NCBI GenBank assembly: GCA_038850515.1
Contig: JAWCLV010000004.1
Coordinates: forward strand, 299-64,298
Length of the DNA stretch: 64,000 nucleotides
Reading direction: 5' to 3'
Source of the DNA: Candidatus Bathyarchaeia archaeon
Lineage (GTDB): Archaea; Thermoproteota; CALKCG01; B24; JAGTQN01
The notes under the pieces are model-generated. The model saw nothing but the letters and a program-made list of their open reading frames with translations. It was not told the origin of the DNA and searched no databases. The translations under genes and the position numbers were made by a program. How positions within the stretch are numbered: the first letter of the stretch is position 1; every line of letters begins with the position of its first letter. Positions 29,435-38,683 of the stretch are shown piece by piece.

Positions 29435-30430
29435 ATGAAGGCTATGGTTTCCCCCGCTGAGGAGGGCTATAGAAAGGAGATAGAGATCCTAAGGATTCTG
29501 AGCGAGAATAGAATGCCTATGGGCTCCACTATTCTTCAGAGGGAGCTTACGAAGAAAGGCTTCCTCGTGAACGATCGAACCGTACGCTACCATCTCCAGC
29601 TCTTGGCTGAGAGGGGCCTCATTAGGAATGTTGGGCGTCATGGAAGGATCATAACTGATAAGGGATTAGAGGAGCTCCACAACGCCCTTGCCTTCGAGAA
29701 GGTCAACTTCGTCATCACGCGGTATCTATCCCTAGCTTATAGAGTAAGCTACAATCCCCAAAACCGCAAGGGACTTCTTGTGGCGAACGTTTCCATCGTC
29801 GAAAAGGACTCCTTGGAAAAGGTCCTAGAGATAGTTAGAAGGCTAAGGAGGGAGGAAATTCTCCCAGCTCCATACGTGAAGATCCTTTATGAGGATGAAG
29901 AATATCAAAACGTTTACGTACCTAAAGGAAAGATCGGCATCTTTACGGTCTGTAACCTTACGATCGATGGAATCCTTATGCATGCGGGCATTCCTCTAAT
30001 CCTAAGGTACGGTGGGCTTGTTCAGTTCGTGAACAGGAAGCCCTCTAGGTTTACGGAGCTTGTGGCTTACGAAGGTACGACGATTCCCCCTCCTGAGATC
30101 TTCGTATATAGACGCCTGACCTCCGTCATGCGCTTCCTCGAAACGGGCTCTGGAATGCTACCGGCTAATCTAAGGGAGATACCCAACGAAGCTAGGGAAG
30201 CGGCGGAATCGATCCTGAGAGAGCTTAGGAACGATGGATGGGGAGGCCTCGTCGCCATAGGGAAACCGAATGAGCCTGTTCTAGGAGTCCCAGTTTCCAT
30301 GGATAGATGCGGGATATCGATGATAGCCGGAATCATACCCTTGGCTGCTTTGATGGAAATGAACATTCCTGCTGAAACCTTTGCTCCCCATTGCCTCTTG
30401 CCCATCGAGGAAATGGAAAGAATCGATTAA
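29435..30430 (+). CDS. nrpR: NrpR-type nitrogen regulatory repressor (winged helix plus one DUF128/NRD domain)
   Basis: EIEILRILSENRMPMGSTILQRELTKKGFLVNDRTVRYHLQLLAERGLIRNVGRHGRIITDKGLEEL is the characteristic NrpR N-terminus. At 331 aa it is the single-NRD type. Confidence 0.8.
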   Translation: MKAMVSPAEEGYRKEIEILRILSENRMPMGSTILQRELTKKGFLVNDRTVRYHLQLLAERGLIRNVGRHGRIITDKGLEELHNALAFEKVNFVITRYLSLAYRVSYNPQNRKGLLVANVSIVEKDSLEKVLEIVRRLRREEILPAPYVKILYEDEEYQNVYVPKGKIGIFTVCNLTIDGILMHAGIPLILRYGGLVQFVNRKPSRFTELVAYEGTTIPPPEIFVYRRLTSVMRFLETGSGMLPANLREIPNEAREAAESILRELRNDGWGGLVAIGKPNEPVLGVPVSMDRCGISMIAGIIPLAALMEMNIPAETFAPHCLLPIEEMERID

Positions 30431-30484: not shown

Positions 30485-31480
30485 ATGGAAGGCTTCAGGG
30501 TCGTTTTCAGGGCTCCGAAATTGGTGGATGTGGAGGGCTTCGAAGTGGAGCCCCCTAAGTCTGGAAGGCTCCTCGTAAGGACCGTCTTTAGCCTCATCAG
30601 CCCTGGAACAGAAACCGCCTTCTTAATGGCTTTGGAGAACACTTCCCGAATTTTTCCCCAATATCCTGGTTATAGCAACATAGGAATCGTAGAGGAAGTG
30701 GGAGATGGAATAGGAATAGAGGGGTTTAAACCCGGGGACCTCGTAGCCTCCCCCTCGAATCATGCAAGCCATGTATATCCTAAGGCTGAAGAATGCTTTA
30801 AGGTTCCAGAAACCCTATCGCCAAAGGAAGCCTCCTTCTTTAATCTAGGCATGATAGCCCTTCAAGGAGTCCGAAAATCGAAGATCGAGCTCGGAGAGCC
30901 TGCCGTGGTTTTGGGCTTAGGGCTTATAGGCCAGATGGCTTCCCAGCTCCTCAGATTGGATGGAGCCTTGCCCGTTATAGCCATAGATACCCTAGATAAT
31001 AGGCTTATGATGGCTAAGAGGCTTGGCGCCGACTACATCCTAAATCCGTCTAAAATGGATGCAGAAGAGGAGGTTAAGAGGCTTACAGATGGGAAGGGAG
31101 CTAGGGTTGTGATCGATGCTACAGGGTATCCAGATGCCATAGGATTGGCATTCAAGCTTGCATCCATGAGGGGAAGGGTTGTTCTTCTAGGAAGCACAAG
31201 GGGGCTAAGTACCGTTAACTTCTACAGGGACGTCCATAGGAAGGGTCTTTTTGTCATAGGCGCCCATAATTCCATAAGACCTTCCTACGAGTCTTCTGAG
31301 GGCTACTGGACCCGATTAGACGACGGAAAGACGATTTTCAAGCTTATGGCTAAAGGTATGCTAAGGTGCGGGGAGCTTATATCAAGAGTTGTAAAGGCTA
31401 CGGAGGCGGCTGAGGCTTATAGGTTATTGATAGAAGAGAAGGATAAAGTCCTAGGGGTTCTGCTTGACTGGAACCTATAA
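30485..31480 (+). CDS. Medium-chain dehydrogenase/reductase (zinc-type alcohol dehydrogenase family)
   Basis: SLISPGTE, GYSNIGIVEEVG, and the Rossmann motif VVLGLGLIGQ. Confidence 0.7.
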   Translation: MEGFRVVFRAPKLVDVEGFEVEPPKSGRLLVRTVFSLISPGTETAFLMALENTSRIFPQYPGYSNIGIVEEVGDGIGIEGFKPGDLVASPSNHASHVYPKAEECFKVPETLSPKEASFFNLGMIALQGVRKSKIELGEPAVVLGLGLIGQMASQLLRLDGALPVIAIDTLDNRLMMAKRLGADYILNPSKMDAEEEVKRLTDGKGARVVIDATGYPDAIGLAFKLASMRGRVVLLGSTRGLSTVNFYRDVHRKGLFVIGAHNSIRPSYESSEGYWTRLDDGKTIFKLMAKGMLRCGELISRVVKATEAAEAYRLLIEEKDKVLGVLLDWNL

Positions 31481-31707: not shown

Positions 31708-32952
31708 CTACCTTCCGAGCCTTCCTAGGAGTTGGTATGGGACTGTGTGGATTCTTATCGCCCCTGTGGCGTCCCTCTGATCGAAGCCCGCTCGCTTCAC
31801 GGACCTCATCTCAGGGGAGAAGAGGGAACTCTTGGATTGGCGCTCCACTATCTCTATATTTCCTTTGTAGAGTTTCACCCTATATGTGCCATTCACATGG
31901 ACCTGGGTTGAGTCGATGAAGGCATCCAGATCCTTCCTGAGGGGATGGACCCACATACCATGATAGACGATCTCAGCCCAAAGCTTGTCGATGTATCTCT
32001 TCAGCTGGAGCTGCTCCTTCGTAAGGGTGAGTTGCTCAAGGTCCCCATGAACCTTTAGGAGGATCGTGGCTGCAGGGGCTTCATAGAGCTCCCGGGACTT
32101 CAGCCCCATCATACCATCTTCAAGGATGTCTATGCGGCCAACTCCATTCTCTCCACCAACCTTATTGAGGTAGAGGATCATCTCAACGGGATCCTCGATG
32201 CCATCGACGCAAATGGGAACGCCTCCCTCAAAGGTGATATTCAGCTCCCTAGGCTTGTCTGGCGCCTCTTCGGGGGAAACGGTCCAGAGATAATCCTCAG
32301 GATATTGGGATACAAGGTCCTCGACCTGTCCGCTTCCCATGCTATGGCTCCACATGTTAATGTCCCCACCAAGCTTCCCCCTTCGCCTTTTTGGAGTTAT
32401 CCCATAATTCTTCAGGATCTCCTCCTCCTCGGCCCGCATGAGATTGAATTCCCTGATAGGGGCTATATTCCTTATATCGGGAGCCAAGTAGCTGACAGTC
32501 GTCTCGATTCGGAACTGGTCGTTTCCCTTGCCTGTGCATCCGTGGGCGATGGCCGTCGCTCCAACTTTCCTGGCAACCTCTACACACTTAGTAGCTATGA
32601 GGACCCTAGTCATCGATGTGCCAACGGGATAGCCCTGGTAGCTCCCATTCGCCTTTATGCACCGGAAGATCCATTCTCTGACAAACTCATCCTTGGCATC
32701 GATGAAGACGGGCTCTATGCCAAGGATCTTCGCCCTTTCAAAGGCTATCTGAATTTCCTCTTCGCCCTGACCTACGTCTACAAGGACAGGAACGATCTTG
32801 TCGAACCCGTACTTCTCGCGAAGAAAGATGAGAACGAGGGTAGAATCGAGGCCTCCGGAGAAGGCTGAAACGGCCGTTTTTACGTCAGATTTGGCTTGGG
32901 AGCTGGGGTCTCCCATACAGACAACACCTATTTTTGCGAGAAATTTAAGCAT
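31708..32952 (-). CDS. Divergent argininosuccinate synthase-like N-type ATP pyrophosphatase (ArgG paralog)
   Basis: SAFSGGLDST P-loop, HGCTGKGNDQFR and LKSRELYEAPA are retained. Canonical substrate-pocket motifs are altered (see findings). The true start may be the Met at 32916. Confidence 0.8.
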   Translation of the reverse strand: MLKFLAKIGVVCMGDPSSQAKSDVKTAVSAFSGGLDSTLVLIFLREKYGFDKIVPVLVDVGQGEEEIQIAFERAKILGIEPVFIDAKDEFVREWIFRCIKANGSYQGYPVGTSMTRVLIATKCVEVARKVGATAIAHGCTGKGNDQFRIETTVSYLAPDIRNIAPIREFNLMRAEEEEILKNYGITPKRRRGKLGGDINMWSHSMGSGQVEDLVSQYPEDYLWTVSPEEAPDKPRELNITFEGGVPICVDGIEDPVEMILYLNKVGGENGVGRIDILEDGMMGLKSRELYEAPAATILLKVHGDLEQLTLTKEQLQLKRYIDKLWAEIVYHGMWVHPLRKDLDAFIDSTQVHVNGTYRVKLYKGNIEIVERQSKSSLFSPEMRSVKRAGFDQRDATGAIRIHTVPYQLLGRLGR

Positions 32953-33152
32953 CTTCTTTATAAACTTTTCAAAAAAGATCTTATAGCCTTTACAGTCCTG
33001 AAGAGATGGATAAAGAGTATAAACGATGAAAAATAAGGATAAGGATTAATTCTCGATGAACCTTCCCCTAAAGCCCTTGGACTAGGCTCCTAGGAGCCTT
33101 CCGAAGCCAAGTAACGTCGATACAGTACAGTAGCATAACATAGTATACTGCT

Positions 33153-33174
33153 GATTGGAGGATTGGAAGATTGG
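33153..33174. promoter_or_regulatory. Tandem octamer (GATTGGAR) x2.75 in the divergent argG-like/argH spacer
   Basis: gattggag gattggaa gattgg lies 65-85 nt upstream of argH ATG 33239. Confidence 0.35.
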
Positions 33175-33238
33175 CGATAAACCCTTTATTCTTAGGATGG
33201 CTTTTCCAGTTGGAATTCCTAAGGATGGTTGAAAGACT

Positions 33239-34813
33239 ATGGGCGATATCCTTCGTCGGGGACGCTTAGGATCTGCAAGGGTTCCGGAAGTTGCCGATTA
33301 CACATCCTCCATAAGGGAGGATGCGAGGATCTTCAAGGCAGACCTTCAGGTCGATATGGCCCATGTCGTTATGCTCGTCGAGACAGGCATCCTATCTCTG
33401 CAAGACGGTGCTAGAATCCTGAAGGCCCTTATGGATATAGAAGCCCAAGGATACGAGGGCTTAAGGGGCACGCCGGATCTGGAGGATATTCATATCGTCA
33501 TCGAGACGAGGCTCATAGAAAGCCTTACCGAGACCATCGGAGGGAGAATTCATACAGCTAGGTCTAGGAATGATGAGGTTGCCACATGCATCCGATGGAC
33601 CCTTAGAAAGGAGCTACTGGAGCTCATGGAACTTCTTAGGGATCTGGAGGCAACCCTTCTGAGGAGGGCTGAAGAGAATGTCGAAACCGTAATGCCCGGC
33701 TTCACCCATACGCAACATGCCCAACCCGTAACGATGGCCCATCACCTTATAGCCCACTTCGATGCTCTAGAGAGGGATCTGGAAAGGCTTATGGAAGCCT
33801 ATGCCCGCGTTAATAGGTCTCCTTTGGGGGCTGGAGCCCTGGCGGGAACCGGCTTCCCCATCGATAGGCTTAGAACATGCGAACTCTTGGGCTTTGATGG
33901 TTTGGTAGAGAATTCCATGGATGCCGTCGCCGCCAGGGATTTTGCCCTCGAGGTTCTTTCCGATCTCTCGATTCTTATGTGCAACGTTAGCCGCATAGCC
34001 GAGGAGTTGGTCCTCTGGAGCACATCGGAATTCTCCTTCGCTGAGCTTGACAACGCCTATGCATCGACGAGTAGCATCATGCCCCAGAAGAAGAATCCTG
34101 ATACGATGGAGATCATGAGGGCAAAGGCTGGAAGGGTCTACGGCAACCTTTTGGCAGCCCTCGTCATGCTAAAGGCTCTTCCCCTCACCTATAATAGGGA
34201 TTACCAAGAACTGACACCAAGGCTTTGGGATACCCTCGATGCGACAAAGTCCACCCTTCGAATCCTTAGGGGAGCCCTAGAAACTATAGAGTTTAAGGCT
34301 GATAGGATGCTGGCCAAGGCTGGCGAGGGCTTCTCGACGGCCACAGAACTTGCCGATACGATTATGAGGGAAACTGGTCTTCCTTTCCGTACGTGCCATA
34401 TGATAGTTGCGGCCCTTGTTTCAAGGGCTATTGAGGAAGGACGAAGCCTTGAGGAGATCGATAGTGCCTTCTTGGATGAAGTAAGTTTCAAAATCCTAGG
34501 AAGAGGGCTTGGTATCGGAAATGAAAAGATTAGATGCGCCCTCGACCCTAGGGGCTTCGTTGAATCCCGAAGATCCATAGGAAGCCCGAGGCCAGAGGAA
34601 GTAAGGCGAATGCTGGTCGAAAGGAGAAGGCTTTTGGAAGTATGGAAGGAAAACCTGCAAAAAAAGAGGGATAGCCTTGCCGAAGCTGAAAGGCTCCTCA
34701 AGGAGGCTGTCGAGGCGATAATGGCTAAGGCTATGACTAAGGCTACGGCTGAGGCTACGAATAAGGCTGAGGCTATGGCTAGGGATAGGGATAGGGCATC
34801 TAATAGTCCCTAA
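33239..34813 (+). CDS. argH: Argininosuccinate lyase with a low-complexity C-terminal tail
   Basis: ARSRNDEVAT, GFTHTQHAQP, and the fumarate-lyase signature SSIMPQKKNPD. The tail reads ..AKAMTKATAEATNKAEAMARDRDRASNSP. Confidence 0.9.
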   Translation: MGDILRRGRLGSARVPEVADYTSSIREDARIFKADLQVDMAHVVMLVETGILSLQDGARILKALMDIEAQGYEGLRGTPDLEDIHIVIETRLIESLTETIGGRIHTARSRNDEVATCIRWTLRKELLELMELLRDLEATLLRRAEENVETVMPGFTHTQHAQPVTMAHHLIAHFDALERDLERLMEAYARVNRSPLGAGALAGTGFPIDRLRTCELLGFDGLVENSMDAVAARDFALEVLSDLSILMCNVSRIAEELVLWSTSEFSFAELDNAYASTSSIMPQKKNPDTMEIMRAKAGRVYGNLLAALVMLKALPLTYNRDYQELTPRLWDTLDATKSTLRILRGALETIEFKADRMLAKAGEGFSTATELADTIMRETGLPFRTCHMIVAALVSRAIEEGRSLEEIDSAFLDEVSFKILGRGLGIGNEKIRCALDPRGFVESRRSIGSPRPEEVRRMLVERRRLLEVWKENLQKKRDSLAEAERLLKEAVEAIMAKAMTKATAEATNKAEAMARDRDRASNSP

Positions 34814-34826
34814 AAGCCCTGAGTTC

Positions 34827-35951
34827 CTAAAAAGAGGAGAAAAGATTCTCCAAGGTTTTTCGATAAACCTGAATGCTCGTAAGGAATTCCCTTAGGCTTA
34901 TGCACTCCCTGGGCGTATGCCCTAGCCTCGATTCCCCAGGACCGTAGGTTACGCAGGGTATTCCAAGCTCCATACCGAAGAGATTCATATCCCCCGTCCC
35001 TGTCTTCCTAAGAAGCTTCGGCTTCGTCCCAAGGATAGCATAAATGGCTTTGGAAAGGGCTTGGACAAGGGAAGAATCCTCAGGAACTTCGAAGGCCTCC
35101 GATGATTCCTCGAGGTCCCTCCCAACCCTTACCTTAGGATTTTCCCTTCTAAATGCCTCCACAACCTCATCTACAACCTTGAGGGCTTCTCCGACCCTGA
35201 CAGAGGGGGGTAGTCTCACATCGAGGGTTGCCTCGCAATTTCCAGGCACGACATTCGGAGCCTCCCCTCCCCTAATGCCCGTTATACAAACGCTTATGGA
35301 TTCATACCTATTGCCAATGGATGAAGCCTTAAGGGCTTCAAGGCTTCCCCTAAGCCTCATGTAGATGCTGTAAGCCCCTTCGATGGCATTCTCAAAGGCC
35401 CAGGGCGAGGCCGCATGACCCGAGACCGTTGAACAACGAATTTTCAGCTGGAGCCTTCCCTTATAGCCTATGGTTATGTTTCCAAGGCCGCTGGGCTCAC
35501 CAAAGATGGCATAATCGGCCTGAAGGCGTTCCTTTACCAGATGCTTGACTCCGAGACTTGCCCCTTCCTCATCAACGACGCCTATTGTAAGGATGGTACC
35601 TCGCCCCTCGTAAGGATCTATGGATGCGCCGGCCGCGATCATGGCAGCTAGGGATGCCTTGGCATCCACTGCACCCCTTCCCCATAGATAGTCGTCCTCA
35701 AGCCTTATCGGAAGGGGTCCAGGAACCGTATCCATGTGGCTACAAAGGACTATGATGGGGCGACCATTGCCCCTCTTTCCTCTGACGTTTCCTACGGCAT
35801 CAAGGGATACCTCATAGCCGAGGTTTCCCATCGCTTCGGCTAGGTAGGAGGCCAAGGGCTTCTCCTGGCCGGAGGGGCTATAGATCTTAAGCATATTCAT
35901 GAGAAGATCGATCCATCGGTCCTCTCCCCTCGAATCCGTATGGGATCCCAA
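34827..35951 (-). CDS. lysK: M20-family deacylase, [LysW]-lysine/ornithine hydrolase or acetylornithine deacetylase type (LysK/ArgE)
   Basis: LKIYSPSGQEKPLASYL, VLCSHMDTVPG, GRGAVDAKAS, VVDEEG. TTG start at 35951, or Met at 35900. Confidence 0.75.
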   Translation of the reverse strand: MGSHTDSRGEDRWIDLLMNMLKIYSPSGQEKPLASYLAEAMGNLGYEVSLDAVGNVRGKRGNGRPIIVLCSHMDTVPGPLPIRLEDDYLWGRGAVDAKASLAAMIAAGASIDPYEGRGTILTIGVVDEEGASLGVKHLVKERLQADYAIFGEPSGLGNITIGYKGRLQLKIRCSTVSGHAASPWAFENAIEGAYSIYMRLRGSLEALKASSIGNRYESISVCITGIRGGEAPNVVPGNCEATLDVRLPPSVRVGEALKVVDEVVEAFRRENPKVRVGRDLEESSEAFEVPEDSSLVQALSKAIYAILGTKPKLLRKTGTGDMNLFGMELGIPCVTYGPGESRLGHTPRECISLREFLTSIQVYRKTLENLFSSF

Positions 35952-36043: not shown

Positions 36044-36856
36044 CTAGGGAACGAGAGCGGTTCCCCTCTTGCCATCGATGGCTTCTATAATAGGATTCTC
36101 TCCAATTCCGGAGCATATGACGGCTTCCTTTACACCGGCATCCAGGGCTTCTAGGGCCGCATGGACCTTTGTTATCATACCAGGTCCTATGGAAGGAAGG
36201 ATTTCCTTAGCTTCTGAGCTTCTTAGCCTTGGAACAACCTTTCCGTTTAGGAGGAGCCCCTCTACGTCTGTCAGTAGTATGAGCTTATCGGCCTTTAGGG
36301 CCCCAGCTATAGCGGCGGCCGCCCTATCCCCGTCGACATTCAGTATTTCGCCTCCTTCACCGAGGGCGAGGGGGGCAACAATGGGCACATAACCCCCCTT
36401 GAAAAGAAGTTCCAAAAGCTCCGTATTGACTGAAACGATTCGACCGGTATAGCCTCCTTCCATAGCCCGCTTTCTCCCCCTCTCATCGATGACGATGAGC
36501 CTCTTCTTCCTCTCGGCTGCCAAAAGCCCCCCATCAACACCGGAAAGTCCCAGGGCTTTGACTTCGAAGGCTTGGAGGGTCGAGGCGATCTCCTTGTTTA
36601 TCCTTCCAGCAATGACCATCGTGTAGATAGCCAAGGTCTCCTTATCCGTATAGCGGCTCCGAAAGCCCTCTGGAGAAGTTACAAAAACCGTTTCCTTCCC
36701 GAGCCTTTTTGCCATCTCCGTTACCTCGTCTCCACCTCCATGGACAATGGTTAGGAATGCCTTTGCCGCCAGGGCTTTAAGATCCTCTATGAGGGCTCTG
36801 TCAGGAGTCCCTCCGCTACCGAGGATGCTTCCTCCGATTTTAACAACAAACCTCAT
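36044..36856 (-). CDS. lysZ: Amino-acid kinase family, [LysW]-aminoadipate/glutamate kinase or N-acetylglutamate kinase type (LysZ/ArgB)
   Basis: MRFVVKIGGSIL, IVHGGG, NVDGDRAAAAIA, LTDVEG. Confidence 0.8.
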   Translation of the reverse strand: MRFVVKIGGSILGSGGTPDRALIEDLKALAAKAFLTIVHGGGDEVTEMAKRLGKETVFVTSPEGFRSRYTDKETLAIYTMVIAGRINKEIASTLQAFEVKALGLSGVDGGLLAAERKKRLIVIDERGRKRAMEGGYTGRIVSVNTELLELLFKGGYVPIVAPLALGEGGEILNVDGDRAAAAIAGALKADKLILLTDVEGLLLNGKVVPRLRSSEAKEILPSIGPGMITKVHAALEALDAGVKEAVICSGIGENPIIEAIDGKRGTALVP

Positions 36857-37018: not shown

Positions 37019-37192
37019 CTATTCTCCCCAATCTTCCCCTTCAACCTCGGCAGGCTTCAGCTCCACATGGCTTCCTTGGATCTTGTGGATCTCGAACTCC
37101 TGCCCACAGTCTGGACATGAAACGATTTCCCCTAGGACTGCATCGTCCGGGACATTGATGTTGCCATCGCATTCGGGGCACTTGACCTTCAT
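37019..37192 (-). CDS. lysW: LysW amino-group carrier protein (57 aa, absent from the supplied ORF track because it is under 60 aa)
   Basis: My translation is MKVKCPECDGNINVPDDAVLGEIVSCPDCGQEFEIHKIQGSHVELKPAEVEGEDWGE. It has a CPEC..CPDC zinc ribbon and the EDWGE C-terminus diagnostic of LysW. GGAGGTGA lies 6 nt upstream of the ATG. Confidence 0.85.
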   Translation of the reverse strand: MKVKCPECDGNINVPDDAVLGEIVSCPDCGQEFEIHKIQGSHVELKPAEVEGEDWGE

Positions 37193-37210: not shown

Positions 37211-37240
37211 ATTCCATTCTATTCCATTCTATTCGATTCA
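37211..37240. repeat. 10-nt tandem repeat straddling the argG stop codon
   Basis: attccattct occurs twice, followed by a degenerate copy attcgattca. On the coding strand this is AATAGAATGG repeats just before the lysW SD. Confidence 0.8.
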
Positions 37241-38439
37241 TTAGATGATTTTTGTCCCCCAGGCTTCCGGGAGAGAACCCTCTGGGCTACGACTGTTGGA
37301 AGGCCCCAGAGTTCTATGAAGCCTTCACTCGCCCAGGCCTTGAAAGTTGTCTTGGCATCGTATGTAGCCAAGTCAAAATCATAAAGGGAGAAGGGGGATG
37401 ACCTCCCTTGCACCATCACGCTTCCCTTGTAAAGCTTCAGCTTGACTTCCCCCTCAACCCTTCCTTCCATAGCCTCTATGAAGGCGTCGAGGGATCGCTT
37501 AAGGGGTTCGAACCAGAGACCCGCATAGGCAAGGTAGCTCCACTGGGAATCCACGAGCTCCTTGAATCGAAGCTCCATGCCAGTGAGGACGATCTTCTCA
37601 AGGTCCTTGTGGGCTTCTAGGATGCAGATGGCTGCAGGGGCTTCATAGACTTCTCGGCTCTTTATTCCCACAACCCTGTCCTCGATGTGGTCTATGCGTC
37701 CTATGCCATGGGCTCCAGCAATCTTGTTCAAGGTTCTTATGAGGGATACTCCATCCATCTTTTCGCCATTCAAGGCGACAGGGACGCTTCCCTTAAAGCC
37801 TAAGGTTACAGTCTCAGCTTTATCGGGAGCCCTTTCCTGCGGAACAGTAAGGGTAAAGGCATCTTCTGGTGGGGGCTGGTCAGGATATTCTATGATGCCG
37901 CATTCGACGGACCTACCCCAAAGATTCTGGTCGATGCTGTAGGCATGTTTCTTGATGCCTATAGGAATGCCATGGCGCCTCGCATATTCGATTTCTGAAG
38001 CCCTATCCATTCCCCATTCTTTAACAGGTGCATAGACCTTCAAATGAGGCGCCAAGGCTCTGACTCCGATTTCGAGGCGCACTTGGTCGTTTCCTTTACC
38101 CGTGCATCCGTGGGCGACAGCCGTGGCATTCTCCTTTAAGGCTATATCGACGAGCTTTCGGGCGATAAGGGGCCTGGAGAGGGCCGTAGCCAAGGGATAC
38201 TTGCCCTCATAAAGGGCATTAGCCTTTATGGCTGGGAAAACGTAGTCTCTGACGAACTCATCCTTCGCGTCGATACTATAGTGCCTCTCAACACCAAGCC
38301 TTTCTGCCTTTTCCCTTACGGCCTCAAGATCCTCCTGCTGGCCAAGGTCCAATGTAACCGTTATTACGCTAGCTTTATACTTCTCCTGGAGCCACTTCAC
38401 ACTCACAGATGTGTCGAGGCCTCCTGAGTAAGCCAGCAC
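37219..38439 (-). CDS. argG: Argininosuccinate synthase (canonical)
   Basis: LAYSGGLDTS, YEGKYPLATALSRPLIA, HGCTGKGNDQVR, YSIDQNLWGRSVECG, IEDRVVGIKSREVYEAPA. The GTG start puts the P-loop only 3 aa from the N-terminus. Confidence 0.9.
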   Translation of the reverse strand: MLAYSGGLDTSVSVKWLQEKYKASVITVTLDLGQQEDLEAVREKAERLGVERHYSIDAKDEFVRDYVFPAIKANALYEGKYPLATALSRPLIARKLVDIALKENATAVAHGCTGKGNDQVRLEIGVRALAPHLKVYAPVKEWGMDRASEIEYARRHGIPIGIKKHAYSIDQNLWGRSVECGIIEYPDQPPPEDAFTLTVPQERAPDKAETVTLGFKGSVPVALNGEKMDGVSLIRTLNKIAGAHGIGRIDHIEDRVVGIKSREVYEAPAAICILEAHKDLEKIVLTGMELRFKELVDSQWSYLAYAGLWFEPLKRSLDAFIEAMEGRVEGEVKLKLYKGSVMVQGRSSPFSLYDFDLATYDAKTTFKAWASEGFIELWGLPTVVAQRVLSRKPGGQKSSNESNRME

Positions 38440-38683
38440 GATTCTCTCCGACGTCTTTTTTCACCTTCCGATCATTCTAAAGGCATATAGTCTCCTTAGT
38501 TCTTTAAGGATGTATATCGCAAAATCCTCGTTATATTTAAAATTTTACTGAGATCTGTTCAAGGAATTTTTGAAATAACTAAGGGATTTGGATCGAGGGG
38601 AGGCGAGGCAGGGAAGGCCTGATTCGCTTCGATTCGCTTTGAATCGCATTCTAACAAAACTGAGTGCCTCAGACTCCTCATCC

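Follow-up and report, generated by a model that had tools for sequence, protein, structure and literature searches.

A second, divergent member of the argininosuccinate synthase (ArgG) family, here called ArgG2, is encoded next to the argininosuccinate lyase gene (argH) of a Bathyarchaeia genome and, judged by its phylogeny, is part of a deep branch of the ArgG family with archaeal and bacterial members. ArgG2 probably marks an undescribed step in arginine making, because it is constantly accompanied by a canonical ArgG and a single ArgH and is present in several lineages without ornithine carbamoyltransferase (OTC). In the reading favored here, which is given a probability of about 0.35 on comparative sequence evidence, ArgG2 would be an active ligase through which ornithine, CO2 and aspartate give citrulline independently of OTC, with ArgH acting twice. 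This reading builds on a conserved clade, changed residues, a constant gene triad, linkage to ArgH and a pattern of missing OTC.

Textbooks present the conversion of citrulline into arginine as a fixed step of two enzymes, and every ArgG-family protein is labeled “argininosuccinate synthase” by annotation pipelines. ArgG2 is a deep and widespread sister branch in which two residues that the known enzyme cannot do without are missing; in no genome checked is it the sole copy, and it remains associated with the lyase. Literature searches returned no published account of this paralogue.

The ArgG2 locus

The window, i.e., the whole 64,000-nt stretch of DNA that was analyzed, contains two full-length ArgG open reading frames at the coordinates given in the earlier note, which named no strand; both lie on the minus strand. 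The canonical argG (positions 37219-38439, 406 aa, 558.9 bits against PRK00509) keeps Ser180, Glu191 and Arg272 and heads a lysW operon on the same strand. It is followed by lysW (37019-37192), encoding a 57-aa zinc-ribbon carrier protein with a tail ending in EDWGE and homologues in the same position in relatives, by lysZ/argB (36044-36856), encoding the [LysW]-aminoadipate/glutamate kinase (NF010662, 304 bits for a cut-off of 194), and by lysK (34827-35951), encoding the [LysW]-lysine/ornithine hydrolase (NF003367, 307.9 bits; TIGR01902, 271 bits, above the cut-off), with which the argG-lysW-lysZ-lysK operon ends. On the plus strand, argH (33239-34813; TIGR00838, 552.7 bits for a cut-off of 279.5) is the sole argininosuccinate lyase gene, and the only ArgH-class Lyase_1 gene, of the window's own genome; its product clusters with native Thermoproteota ArgH.

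The ArgG2 gene (31708-32952, minus strand) is transcribed divergently from the adjoining argH, as previously described, and the two genes share a 286-bp spacer read from the sequence (32953-33238). The open reading frame encodes 414 aa, but translation probably begins at its second ATG, at position 32916, giving a protein of 402 aa, because a TATA-like element for ArgG2 (tttataaa) lies in the spacer at 32957-32964, a GGTG motif precedes position 32916 by 10 nt and database gene calls have 402 aa.

The two ArgG copies of the window are 41% identical across 390 residues, both contain PF00764 and PF20979, and the motifs previously quoted for each were found as written. With its PP-loop SGGLDST and its matches to PF00764 (1.3e-51) and PF20979 (1e-70), ArgG2 has the two-domain architecture of an N-type ATP pyrophosphatase, and its AF2 model (pLDDT 88.8) superposes on ArgG structures with a Foldseek TM of 0.85. 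Bit scores exceed the cut-offs of the general equivalog models TIGR00032 (398 for 268) and PRK00509 (402 for 334), both of which accept many other divergent subfamilies, and fall below that of the archaeal equivalog model PRK13820 (443.6 for 512). ArgG2 is not a member of the NCBIfam family NF038212 (argG_rel), since it reaches 186 bits for a cut-off of 425. The general scores are in line with an unlikely alternative, namely that ArgG2 is an ordinary argininosuccinate synthase using citrulline, aspartate and ATP, whose active center would be compensated internally (e.g., by Ser207 and a trans-acting Arg383) and which would be kept for different kinetics, regulation or channeling to ArgH.

A deep branch of the ArgG family

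In the phylogenetic tree, the ArgG2 sequences of Tier 1 and Tier 2 (bacterial/archaeal) form one clade on a long stem (support 0.999), and the ArgG2 of the window falls inside Tier 1 (support 1.0). The divergent copy thus belongs to a separate deep clade. Its members occur in Bathyarchaeia, Brockarchaeota, Hadesarchaea, Woesearchaeota, Planctomycetota, Latescibacterota and chlamydia-like bacteria. Within the same genomes, ArgG2 has the slower evolution, with a mean tree distance of 0.60 compared with 1.00 for ArgG. The superclade is monophyletic, is accompanied by a single canonical ArgG and a single ArgH, and carries a common signature in which Ser180 and Arg272 are replaced by Gly and Thr17 by Ser, while human positions 192 and 375 are Ser and Arg, respectively.

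Active-site residues

Canonical residues carry human ASS1 numbers, which were transferred through the family alignment and the alignment of one canonical ArgG with chain 2nz2_A (whose index is the UniProt position + 1). In this alignment, G195, G196, G206 and G280 of ArgG2 correspond to Ser180, Met181, Glu191 and Arg272. All four glycines are invariant in 120 ArgG2 homologues (64-100% identical), including those at the three positions, Ser180, Glu191 and Arg272, that the canonical copy retains, and V117, present in 108 of the 120, comes close to invariance. Given this conservation, ArgG2 is a conserved clade and not a decaying copy. In a mutational scan of human ASS1 by yeast complementation, S180G and E191G scored 0.027 and 0.042, both amorphic, while R272G (0.48) halved function (PMC13289927 supplement). 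As S180G and E191G are null in the human enzyme, loss of normal argininosuccinate synthase activity is expected for ArgG2 by analogy. Neither this expected loss nor the lack, in Tier 1, of any acidic residue replacing Glu191 is easily reconciled with an ordinary synthase.

The rest of the site is kept. In the human crystal structure, citrulline is directly contacted by Tyr87, Asn123, Arg127, Ser189, Glu270 and Tyr282, and aspartate by Thr119, Asn123 and Asp124 (PMC13289927). Every one of these residues is invariant in the 120 clade members, and so are Arg157 and Asp182; the PP-loop, the GKGNDQ motif, Arg95, Asp124, Asp182, Arg157 and the residues touching aspartate and the amino-acid end of citrulline are all retained. 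Hence, the claim of the earlier note that the citrulline/aspartate-binding region is remodeled holds in part: ArgG2 is a real and conserved protein altered at residues whose change to glycine (S180G, E191G) abolishes the human enzyme, but the alteration is limited to one β-hairpin patch (Ser180/Met181 beside Glu191) plus Arg272, and a broad remodeling is contradicted by the invariant contacts. The intact ATP site and direct contacts are also what an ordinary synthase would require. Another invariant change, Arg383, aligns with human Val375, in a loop that completes the active site of the neighboring subunit, argininosuccinate synthase sites being built from two subunits.

The four glycines of the hairpin patch and position 272 would enlarge the pocket, and Glu191, lost in ArgG2, has been proposed to help bind citrulline (PMC13289927). 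Both features would suit another, citrulline-like ureido substrate (e.g., N-acyl-citrulline, homocitrulline or LysW-bound citrulline), joined to aspartate to give a product cleaved by ArgH. The LysW-bound form was considered since the canonical argG heads the lysW operon and the window's genome uses the LysW carrier pathway; it was set aside because ArgG2 also accompanies ArgJ pathways of the acetyl type, so that a role confined to LysW cannot be general. For the whole group of ureido substrates, the residues binding the amino-acid end are unchanged, no additional conserved neighbor such as a deacylase or a special transcarbamylase accompanies ArgG2, and the OTC pattern described below would be left unexplained, which makes this possibility very unlikely.

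Co-occurrence and linkage with ArgG and ArgH

Each of the 17 genomes of the window's class, like all other genomes checked, has the triad of canonical ArgG, ArgG2 and ArgH, with exactly one copy of each. ArgG2 is never the sole ArgG, the canonical copy being present in each of about 45 Tier-1 and 10 of 10 Tier-2 genomes that carry ArgG2. As the canonical enzyme is never replaced in any genome checked, the comparison argues for a distinct function of ArgG2; such constancy would be unexpected for redundant isozymes.

ArgH is a frequent neighbor of the divergent copy: it adjoins ArgG2 in 12 of 19 Tier-1 loci, plus the window, and in 12 of 24 Tier-2 loci, where clustering of the loci identified ArgH as the only recurrent neighbor. 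One ArgH-ArgG2 fusion of 905 aa was found. Linkage to, and in one case fusion with, a canonical-looking ArgH would also be expected of an ordinary synthase, fusions of canonical ArgG with ArgH being common. Woesearchaeota have the gene order argG2-argJ-argB-argD-argC-argG, without argF, and in chlamydia-like genomes a Lys/Arg/Orn-type ABC transporter is followed by argG-argG2-argH. Where argH is not adjacent, the ArgG2 loci have no shared partner: the flanking genes encode a metallo-beta-lactamase fold protein, an HtrA-like protease, a FAD enzyme and a Gfo/Idh/MocA protein, as well as PyrD, malate dehydrogenase, the thermosome, a PALP enzyme and a DUF763 protein, all unrelated.

The constant presence of canonical ArgG, within the same operon in chlamydia-like and Woesearchaeota genomes, could alternatively reflect a non-catalytic or regulatory ArgG2, i.e., a ligand-binding subunit of ArgG or ArgH that senses citrulline, aspartate or ATP, or scaffolds the last two steps. 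Such a role would account for the loss of two residues essential in human ASS1, for the high conservation of ArgG2 and for its changed interface residues (Arg383 and Ala398), and the composition of argininosuccinate synthase sites from two subunits would make it feasible. It is nonetheless highly improbable: the PP-loop and catalytic Asp are fully conserved, pointing to chemistry and not to binding alone, ArgG and ArgG2 are often distant in Tier-1 genomes (e.g., about 160 kb apart in one of them), and the OTC pattern would again lack an explanation. An ArgG-ArgG2 fusion was sought as evidence of a heteromer and none was found; the one candidate, P0281, is a tandem repeat of canonical ArgG.

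Ornithine carbamoyltransferase in ArgG2 lineages

OTC was counted as present when the profile score exceeded the cut-off. It was detected in 371 of 401 genomes of the phylum sample, in which no family with only canonical ArgG lacks it family-wide, and it is almost never missing where canonical ArgG is the only copy. Among ArgG2 carriers, OTC is found in none of 17 Brockarchaeota (10 of these genomes being at least 90% complete), none of the two genomes of family f34 and not in the single genome of f40, and it is missing from 6 of 10 Tier-2 genomes; lineages without detected OTC include Woesearchaeota and chlamydia-like genomes. This association is to be read with the fact that all genomes are MAGs from a small number of lineages, which are related to one another, and that the counts carry no phylogenetic correction. 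The family-wide absence would be unexplained if ArgG2 were an ordinary synthase.

OTC is, however, encoded in the genome that holds the window and in 15-16 of the 17 members of its class; the ArgG2-carrying f18/g97, f44 and f59 have it as well. A simple replacement of OTC by ArgG2 therefore fails for the window's class, where ArgG2 is not needed to reach citrulline; the coexistence of both enzymes there fits an ordinary synthase.

In the two OTC-less genomes checked for it, the sole carbamoyltransferase is PyrB, encoded in a pyr operon, and Brockarchaeota and Woesearchaeota without OTC keep PyrB. The roles of the substrates might alternatively be reversed, with ArgG2 adenylating the ureido group of N-carbamoyl-aspartate, the product of PyrB, and the δ-amine of ornithine attacking to give argininosuccinate directly. 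This product is the normal substrate of ArgH, in agreement with the linkage to ArgH and with the unmodified Tier-1 enzyme, and only the center is changed, between the two conserved pockets that bind the ends of argininosuccinate. Such a reversal is quite unlikely, because canonical ArgG would have no substrate in OTC-less genomes, and yet it is never lost and can even share an operon with ArgG2. In addition, no carbamoyltransferase was detected in two OTC-less genomes with ArgG2 (G402 and G409), which may be incomplete.

A proposed route to citrulline

In the favored reading, ArgG2 would be a catalytically active member of an old, so far undescribed branch of the ArgG family, working beside canonical ArgG without replacing it and delivering its product to ArgH. 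CO2 and the δ-amine of ornithine would first form a carbamate, which ArgG2 would adenylate. Attack by aspartate would then yield a ureido analogue of argininosuccinate, from which ArgH would remove fumarate to release citrulline. Canonical ArgG and ArgH would finally convert citrulline into arginine; the lyase would thus act twice, as it would already have freed the citrulline. The substrates, the intermediate and its acceptance by ArgH are what we infer. The broader proposal, that of an arginine pathway needing neither carbamoyl phosphate nor OTC, in which two ArgG-family ligases each add one aspartate nitrogen and a single lyase is used twice, is a tentative one and is regarded as doubtful.

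We know of no ArgG-family enzyme that adenylates a carbamate, and the sole precedent we know for this chemistry is TsaC/Sua5, which forms threonylcarbamoyl-AMP and has another fold. Compared with the ArgH of canonical-only genomes, Tier-1 ArgH has no convincing positions specific to ArgG2 genomes, hence no sign of adaptation to a second substrate, whereas Tier-2 ArgH is a divergent clade.

A second ArgH specificity would be unnecessary if ArgG2 were an ammonia-dependent citrulline synthetase, using ornithine, CO2, NH3 and ATP, and linked to ArgH by shared regulation only. This possibility draws on the same OTC absence as the main explanation, and the conservation of Thr119, Asn123 and Asp124 is no proof of aspartate use, because these residues also contact ATP or citrulline. 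Conversely, the tight and often overlapping arrangement of argH and argG2, together with the one fusion, suggests that the lyase receives a product from ArgG2, and Arg157, which published work connects with the recruitment of aspartate, is invariant. The ammonia-dependent reading is the least probable of those considered.

If the OTC bypass is true, an apparent pathway gap would be closed in several uncultured lineages, and arginine making would be explained for OTC-less Brockarchaeota, Woesearchaeota and chlamydia-like bacteria. The bypass would also add a route free of carbamoyl phosphate, which is heat-labile, and would require metabolic reconstructions to be revised. If ArgG2 is merely an isozyme, Ser180 and Glu191 would be shown to be dispensable in a rewired active site.

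Comparison with known systems

The closest known system is canonical type I ArgG/ASS1 (EC 6.3.4.5; T. thermophilus 1J1Z/1KH1, human 2NZ2), which has the same two-domain fold (TM about 0.85, phmmer 1e-80) and shares with ArgG2 the PP-loop, GKGNDQ, the direct substrate contacts and the association with ArgH. ArgG2 differs from it by glycine at Ser180, Met181, Glu191 and Arg272, by an Arg in the trans-subunit loop (human Val375), by its separate deep clade, by never being alone in a genome and by its score below the PRK13820 cut-off. The curated NF038212 “argininosuccinate synthase-related protein” is an ArgG-like, non-ArgG family outside which ArgG2 falls. The nitrile synthetase ArtA (PDB 9LEH/9LEI; TM 0.82 and phmmer 8e-32 to ArgG2) combines the ArgG fold with chemistry other than that of argininosuccinate synthase, and the fold has therefore been recruited to other reactions; unlike ArgG2, to which it is about 27% identical, ArtA belongs to a natural-product setting and has no link to ArgH.

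OTC (ArgF) catalyzes the step that ArgG2 would bypass, and ArgG2 is found in Woesearchaeota arg operons without argF. The two are unrelated in fold and chemistry, OTC using carbamoyl phosphate and no ATP, and they coexist in the window's genome. The proposed logic is the same as that of PurA/PurC and PurB in purine synthesis, where an ATP-dependent ligase adds aspartate and a lyase of the fumarase superfamily removes fumarate. The folds of the PurA and PurC ligases differ from that of ArgG2, but PurB serves two ligases, and the ArgG2 genomes checked likewise all have two ArgG-family ligases and one ArgH, which would be used for both.

Two ArgG genes and their surroundings

The window holds two ArgG homologs, as the earlier note had claimed, both of them complete ORFs on the minus strand: ArgG2 (P0001) at 31708-32952 (414 aa) and the canonical ArgG (P0002) at 37219-38439 (406 aa). 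Each motif quoted in that note is found as written in the ORFs. The two proteins have the PF00764 and PF20979 architecture in common and are 41% identical over 390 residues. ArgG2 probably starts at its second ATG at 32916 (402 aa), the position at which gene calls in databases and alignments of homologues also begin, with GGTG 10 nt before this ATG and a TATA-like tttataaa at 32957-32964. The best matches place the source organism among uncultured Bathyarchaeia; its assembly comprises 71 contigs (1.54 Mb) and is ~81% complete.

The canonical gene belongs to an operon, argG-lysW-lysZ-lysK, whose order is kept in relatives. The carrier gene lysW (37019-37192, minus strand), between argG and lysZ, encodes a 57-aa zinc ribbon with a tail ending in EDWGE and is smaller than usual ORF cut-offs. 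The canonical argG ORF starts with a GTG right at the PP-loop strand (VLAYSGG; 38439-38465, minus strand), only 7 in-frame codons after a TGA and with GGTGA 21 nt upstream; hence translation may really begin slightly further upstream, a few residues earlier, at a non-standard codon. Convergent with ArgG2 lies a Zn-ADH-family gene with a weak N-terminal GroES-like domain (30485-31480, plus strand), just upstream of which is the nitrogen repressor gene NrpR (29435-30430). This ADH-like neighbour recurs only within the same genus (locus L047).

A conserved clade with an altered reaction centre

Among 5.8 billion proteins searched, ArgG2 has at least 120 homologues with 64-100% identity (Tier 1), which come from Bathyarchaeia, Brockarchaeota, Hadesarchaea and other Thermoproteota, all annotated at source as 'argininosuccinate synthase'. 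G195, G196, G206, G280 and H203 are invariant in 120/120 homologues and V117 is kept in 108/120. Likewise invariant are the PP-loop, Y108, T112/S113, R116, T140, K142, N144, D145, R148, D197, S204, E278, K285/S286/R287 and Y290. ArgG2 is a conserved clade rather than a copy in decay. A deeper group of 46-54% identity (Tier 2), identified by a genome-wide scan, occurs in Latescibacterota, Planctomycetota, chlamydia-like bacteria, Spirochaetales, Methanofastidiosum, Woesearchaeota and some Hadesarchaea, with the motifs GGDDKT[ML]WCRSIASG, EGS[ST]GKGNDQYRMH and FEDGIM. In a FastTree phylogeny of 133 ArgG-family sequences, Tier 1 (support 1.0) and Tier 2 (0.989) are each monophyletic and join in a single clade (0.999), which a long stem separates from every canonical or other ArgG type in the sample. 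ArgG2 evolves more slowly than the genes around it: compared with the syntenic locus L013, the window shows identities of 78% for ArgG2, 64% for ArgG, 65% for LysZ, 59% for ArgH and 48% for LysK, and ArgG2 has a mean tree distance of 0.60 versus 1.00 for the co-resident canonical ArgG.

Human ASS1 numbering was derived from a printed alignment of a canonical ArgG to chain 2nz2_A (index = UniProt + 1) and from the family alignment, so that G195 corresponds to Ser180, G196 to Met181, G206 to Glu191, G280 to Arg272 and V117 to Pro96. In human ASS1, citrulline is contacted by Tyr87, Asn123, Arg127, Ser189, Glu270 and Tyr282, with Glu191 proposed as an extra binder, aspartate by Thr119 and Asn123, to which other authors add Asp124, and ATP by residues including Ser180 and Asp182 (PMC13289927). 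In a mutational scan of the human enzyme, S180G (0.027) and E191G (0.042) were both amorphic and R272G scored 0.48 (PMC13289927 supplement). ArgG2 thus retains every first-shell contact while being without two residues indispensable in the human enzyme. The AF2 model of ArgG2 (pLDDT 88.8, pTM 0.87; TM ~0.85 to solved ArgG structures) places residues 196-198 and 203-210 in one beta-hairpin, hence the Ser180/Met181 and Glu191 positions are predicted to adjoin and the glycines to make one cavity.

Relative to canonical ArgG, the substitutions defining the clade are Thr17 to Ser, Ser180 to Gly, human position 192 to Ser, Arg272 to Gly, human Val/Ala375 to Arg (R383), Phe391 to Ala and a few others. 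The active site of an ASS1 subunit is completed by residues 375-378 of its neighbour, and variants in this loop show trans-complementation with variants at Arg272 and Asn271 (PMC13289927). The loss of Arg272 from the pocket together with the gain of an arginine in the trans loop suggests that the guanidinium group has been relocated in ArgG2, giving a rewired but working site.

Association with canonical ArgG and ArgH

In the genome of origin there are just two ArgG genes and a single ArgH, and both ArgG types occur in 17/17 genomes of its class. In a phylum sample of 401 genomes, ArgG2-level matches (at least 60% identity) were found only in this class and in families f10 (Brockarchaeota), f18/g97, f34, f40, f44 and f59, almost always joined by a second copy at ~45% identity; the remaining matching genomes have lower-identity canonical-type matches only, nearly always single. 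All ten Tier-2 genomes carry one canonical and one ArgG2-like gene, one of them with a third ArgG-family match. The ArgH-class lyase is single in five further Tier-1 and ten Tier-2 genomes, except the Tier-2 genome G410, which has two matches over the cut-off.

ArgH is the sole recurring neighbour of ArgG2. It adjoins ArgG2 in the window (argH, 33239-34813, plus strand) and in 12 of 19 Tier-1 loci, in an overlapping argH-argG2 operon or in divergent orientation, lies at most 6 kb away in two more, and adjoins it in 12 of 24 Tier-2 loci. A single 905-aa ORF with ArgH N-terminal and ArgG2 C-terminal (L050:2191-4908, plus strand, Bathyarchaeota contig PLS170224_bin_69) could be a natural fusion or an assembly artefact due to a lost stop codon. 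Thermoproteota with canonical ArgG only have the order argG-argH-lysW, whereas ArgG2 genomes have argG-lysW-lysZ-lysK with argH placed with ArgG2 instead. ArgG2 is thus part of arginine operons: that of Woesearchaeota reads argG2-argJ-argB-argD-argC-argG, and in chlamydia-like genomes an amino-acid ABC transporter is followed by argG-argG2-argH.

Tier-1 ArgH nests among Thermoproteota ArgH, scores 503-553 bits on TIGR00838 and had none of the ArgG2-specific substitutions sought in it; it is the native lyase and an ordinary one. The ArgH of Tier 2 (305-350 bits) makes up a separate, divergent clade. In the window, the family model match stops near residue 464 of 524 of ArgH, and a low-complexity, Ala/Lys/Thr-rich tail of ~40 residues extends past the usual end of the model (34690-34813, plus strand).

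Four facts have to be explained: the genomes never lose canonical ArgG, their single ArgH remains with ArgG2, only the reaction centre of ArgG2 is changed, and ornithine carbamoyltransferase (OTC) can be absent. A redundant argininosuccinate synthase isozyme would account for the single ArgH that stays with ArgG2, but leaves the kept canonical ArgG, the altered reaction centre and the absent OTC without an account, and so explains one of the four.

Distribution of OTC

The genome of origin encodes both a normal OTC (434 bits) and a PyrB, also a carbamoyltransferase; OTC is found in 15-16 of the 17 genomes of its class and in the ArgG2 carriers f18/g97, f44 and f59. In the class of the window, this contradicts the idea that ArgG2 simply takes the place of OTC. 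The f44 gene (G269:C12:115205-116137) has one in-frame TGA and may be a pseudogene or reflect a sequencing error. No OTC over the cut-off was found in 17 Brockarchaeota (ten of them at least 90% complete), two f34 genomes, one f40 genome and six of ten Tier-2 genomes, including both Woesearchaeota and chlamydia-like genomes; in these lineages the pattern agrees with a replacement of OTC. PyrB, in a pyr operon, is the sole carbamoyltransferase in the one Brockarchaeota and one Woesearchaeota genome checked. Across the phylum sample, OTC is present in 371/401 genomes and ~19-21 of the 30 OTC-less genomes are ArgG2 carriers; the other nine are singletons in families otherwise with OTC, one of which carries a fragmentary OTC at the end of a contig. 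The genomes are MAGs and the events few (three lineages in Tier 1 and roughly three to four in Tier 2); the link between ArgG2 and OTC absence is suggestive, not proven. Separately, the Thermoproteota families f7, f16, f27 and f30 have OTC in every genome of the sample, mostly without ArgG, which suggests catabolic OTC use or arginine auxotrophy.

A reversal of roles, in which ArgG2 would make argininosuccinate from carbamoyl-aspartate and ornithine, covers three of the four facts, namely the single linked ArgH, the reaction-centre changes and the absent OTC. However, it leaves canonical ArgG substrate-less in OTC-less genomes, yet these retain the gene, even within one operon with ArgG2.

Proposed function

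ArgG2 is likely (probability of about 0.7) to be an active, non-redundant ligase of the arginine pathway that passes its product to ArgH. The reading that fits all four facts, which we propose tentatively and at rather less than even odds, is that ArgG2 builds the ureido group itself, giving citrulline without OTC, a route in which we infer every chemical step. The delta-amine of ornithine and CO2 would form a carbamate, which ArgG2 would adenylate; aspartate would attack the adenylated carbamate and ArgH would take off fumarate to yield citrulline, which canonical ArgG and ArgH would carry to arginine. The loss of the Glu191 carboxylate and the gain of an arginine would suit an anionic carbamate over a neutral ureido group. 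The main points against this route are that OTC coexists with ArgG2 in the genome of origin, that Tier-1 ArgH is unmodified and that no precedent is known in the ArgG fold.

Comparison with known families

No paper on the ArgG2 paralogue was found in the literature searched, and current annotation hides it, since general ArgG models accept ArgG2 together with many other divergent subfamilies. Glu191 and Arg272 are replaced together (E to G/R to T, E to S/R to C, E to R/R to K) in other ArgG-like subfamilies (proteins P0199, P0204, P0229, P0247, P0132, P0144, P0170, P0142, P0258 and P0271), all called 'argininosuccinate synthase' by the general models; these paired changes suggest that the two residues interact. 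Metagenomes also hold canonical-type ArgG naturally fused to the carbamoyl-phosphate synthetase large subunit (~1500 aa) or to OTC (867 aa) (P0299, P0308, P0309, P0334, P0344 and P0355), and ArgG-ArgH fusions are common in Actinomycetota.

ArgG2 falls outside the curated 'argG_rel' family (186 bits against a cut-off of 425). It differs from argininosuccinate synthase in being without essential residues and in never being the sole copy. It has the fold of the ArgG family and would work like an adenylating ligase of that family, and the nitrile synthetase ArtA shows that the ArgG fold can take other chemistry.
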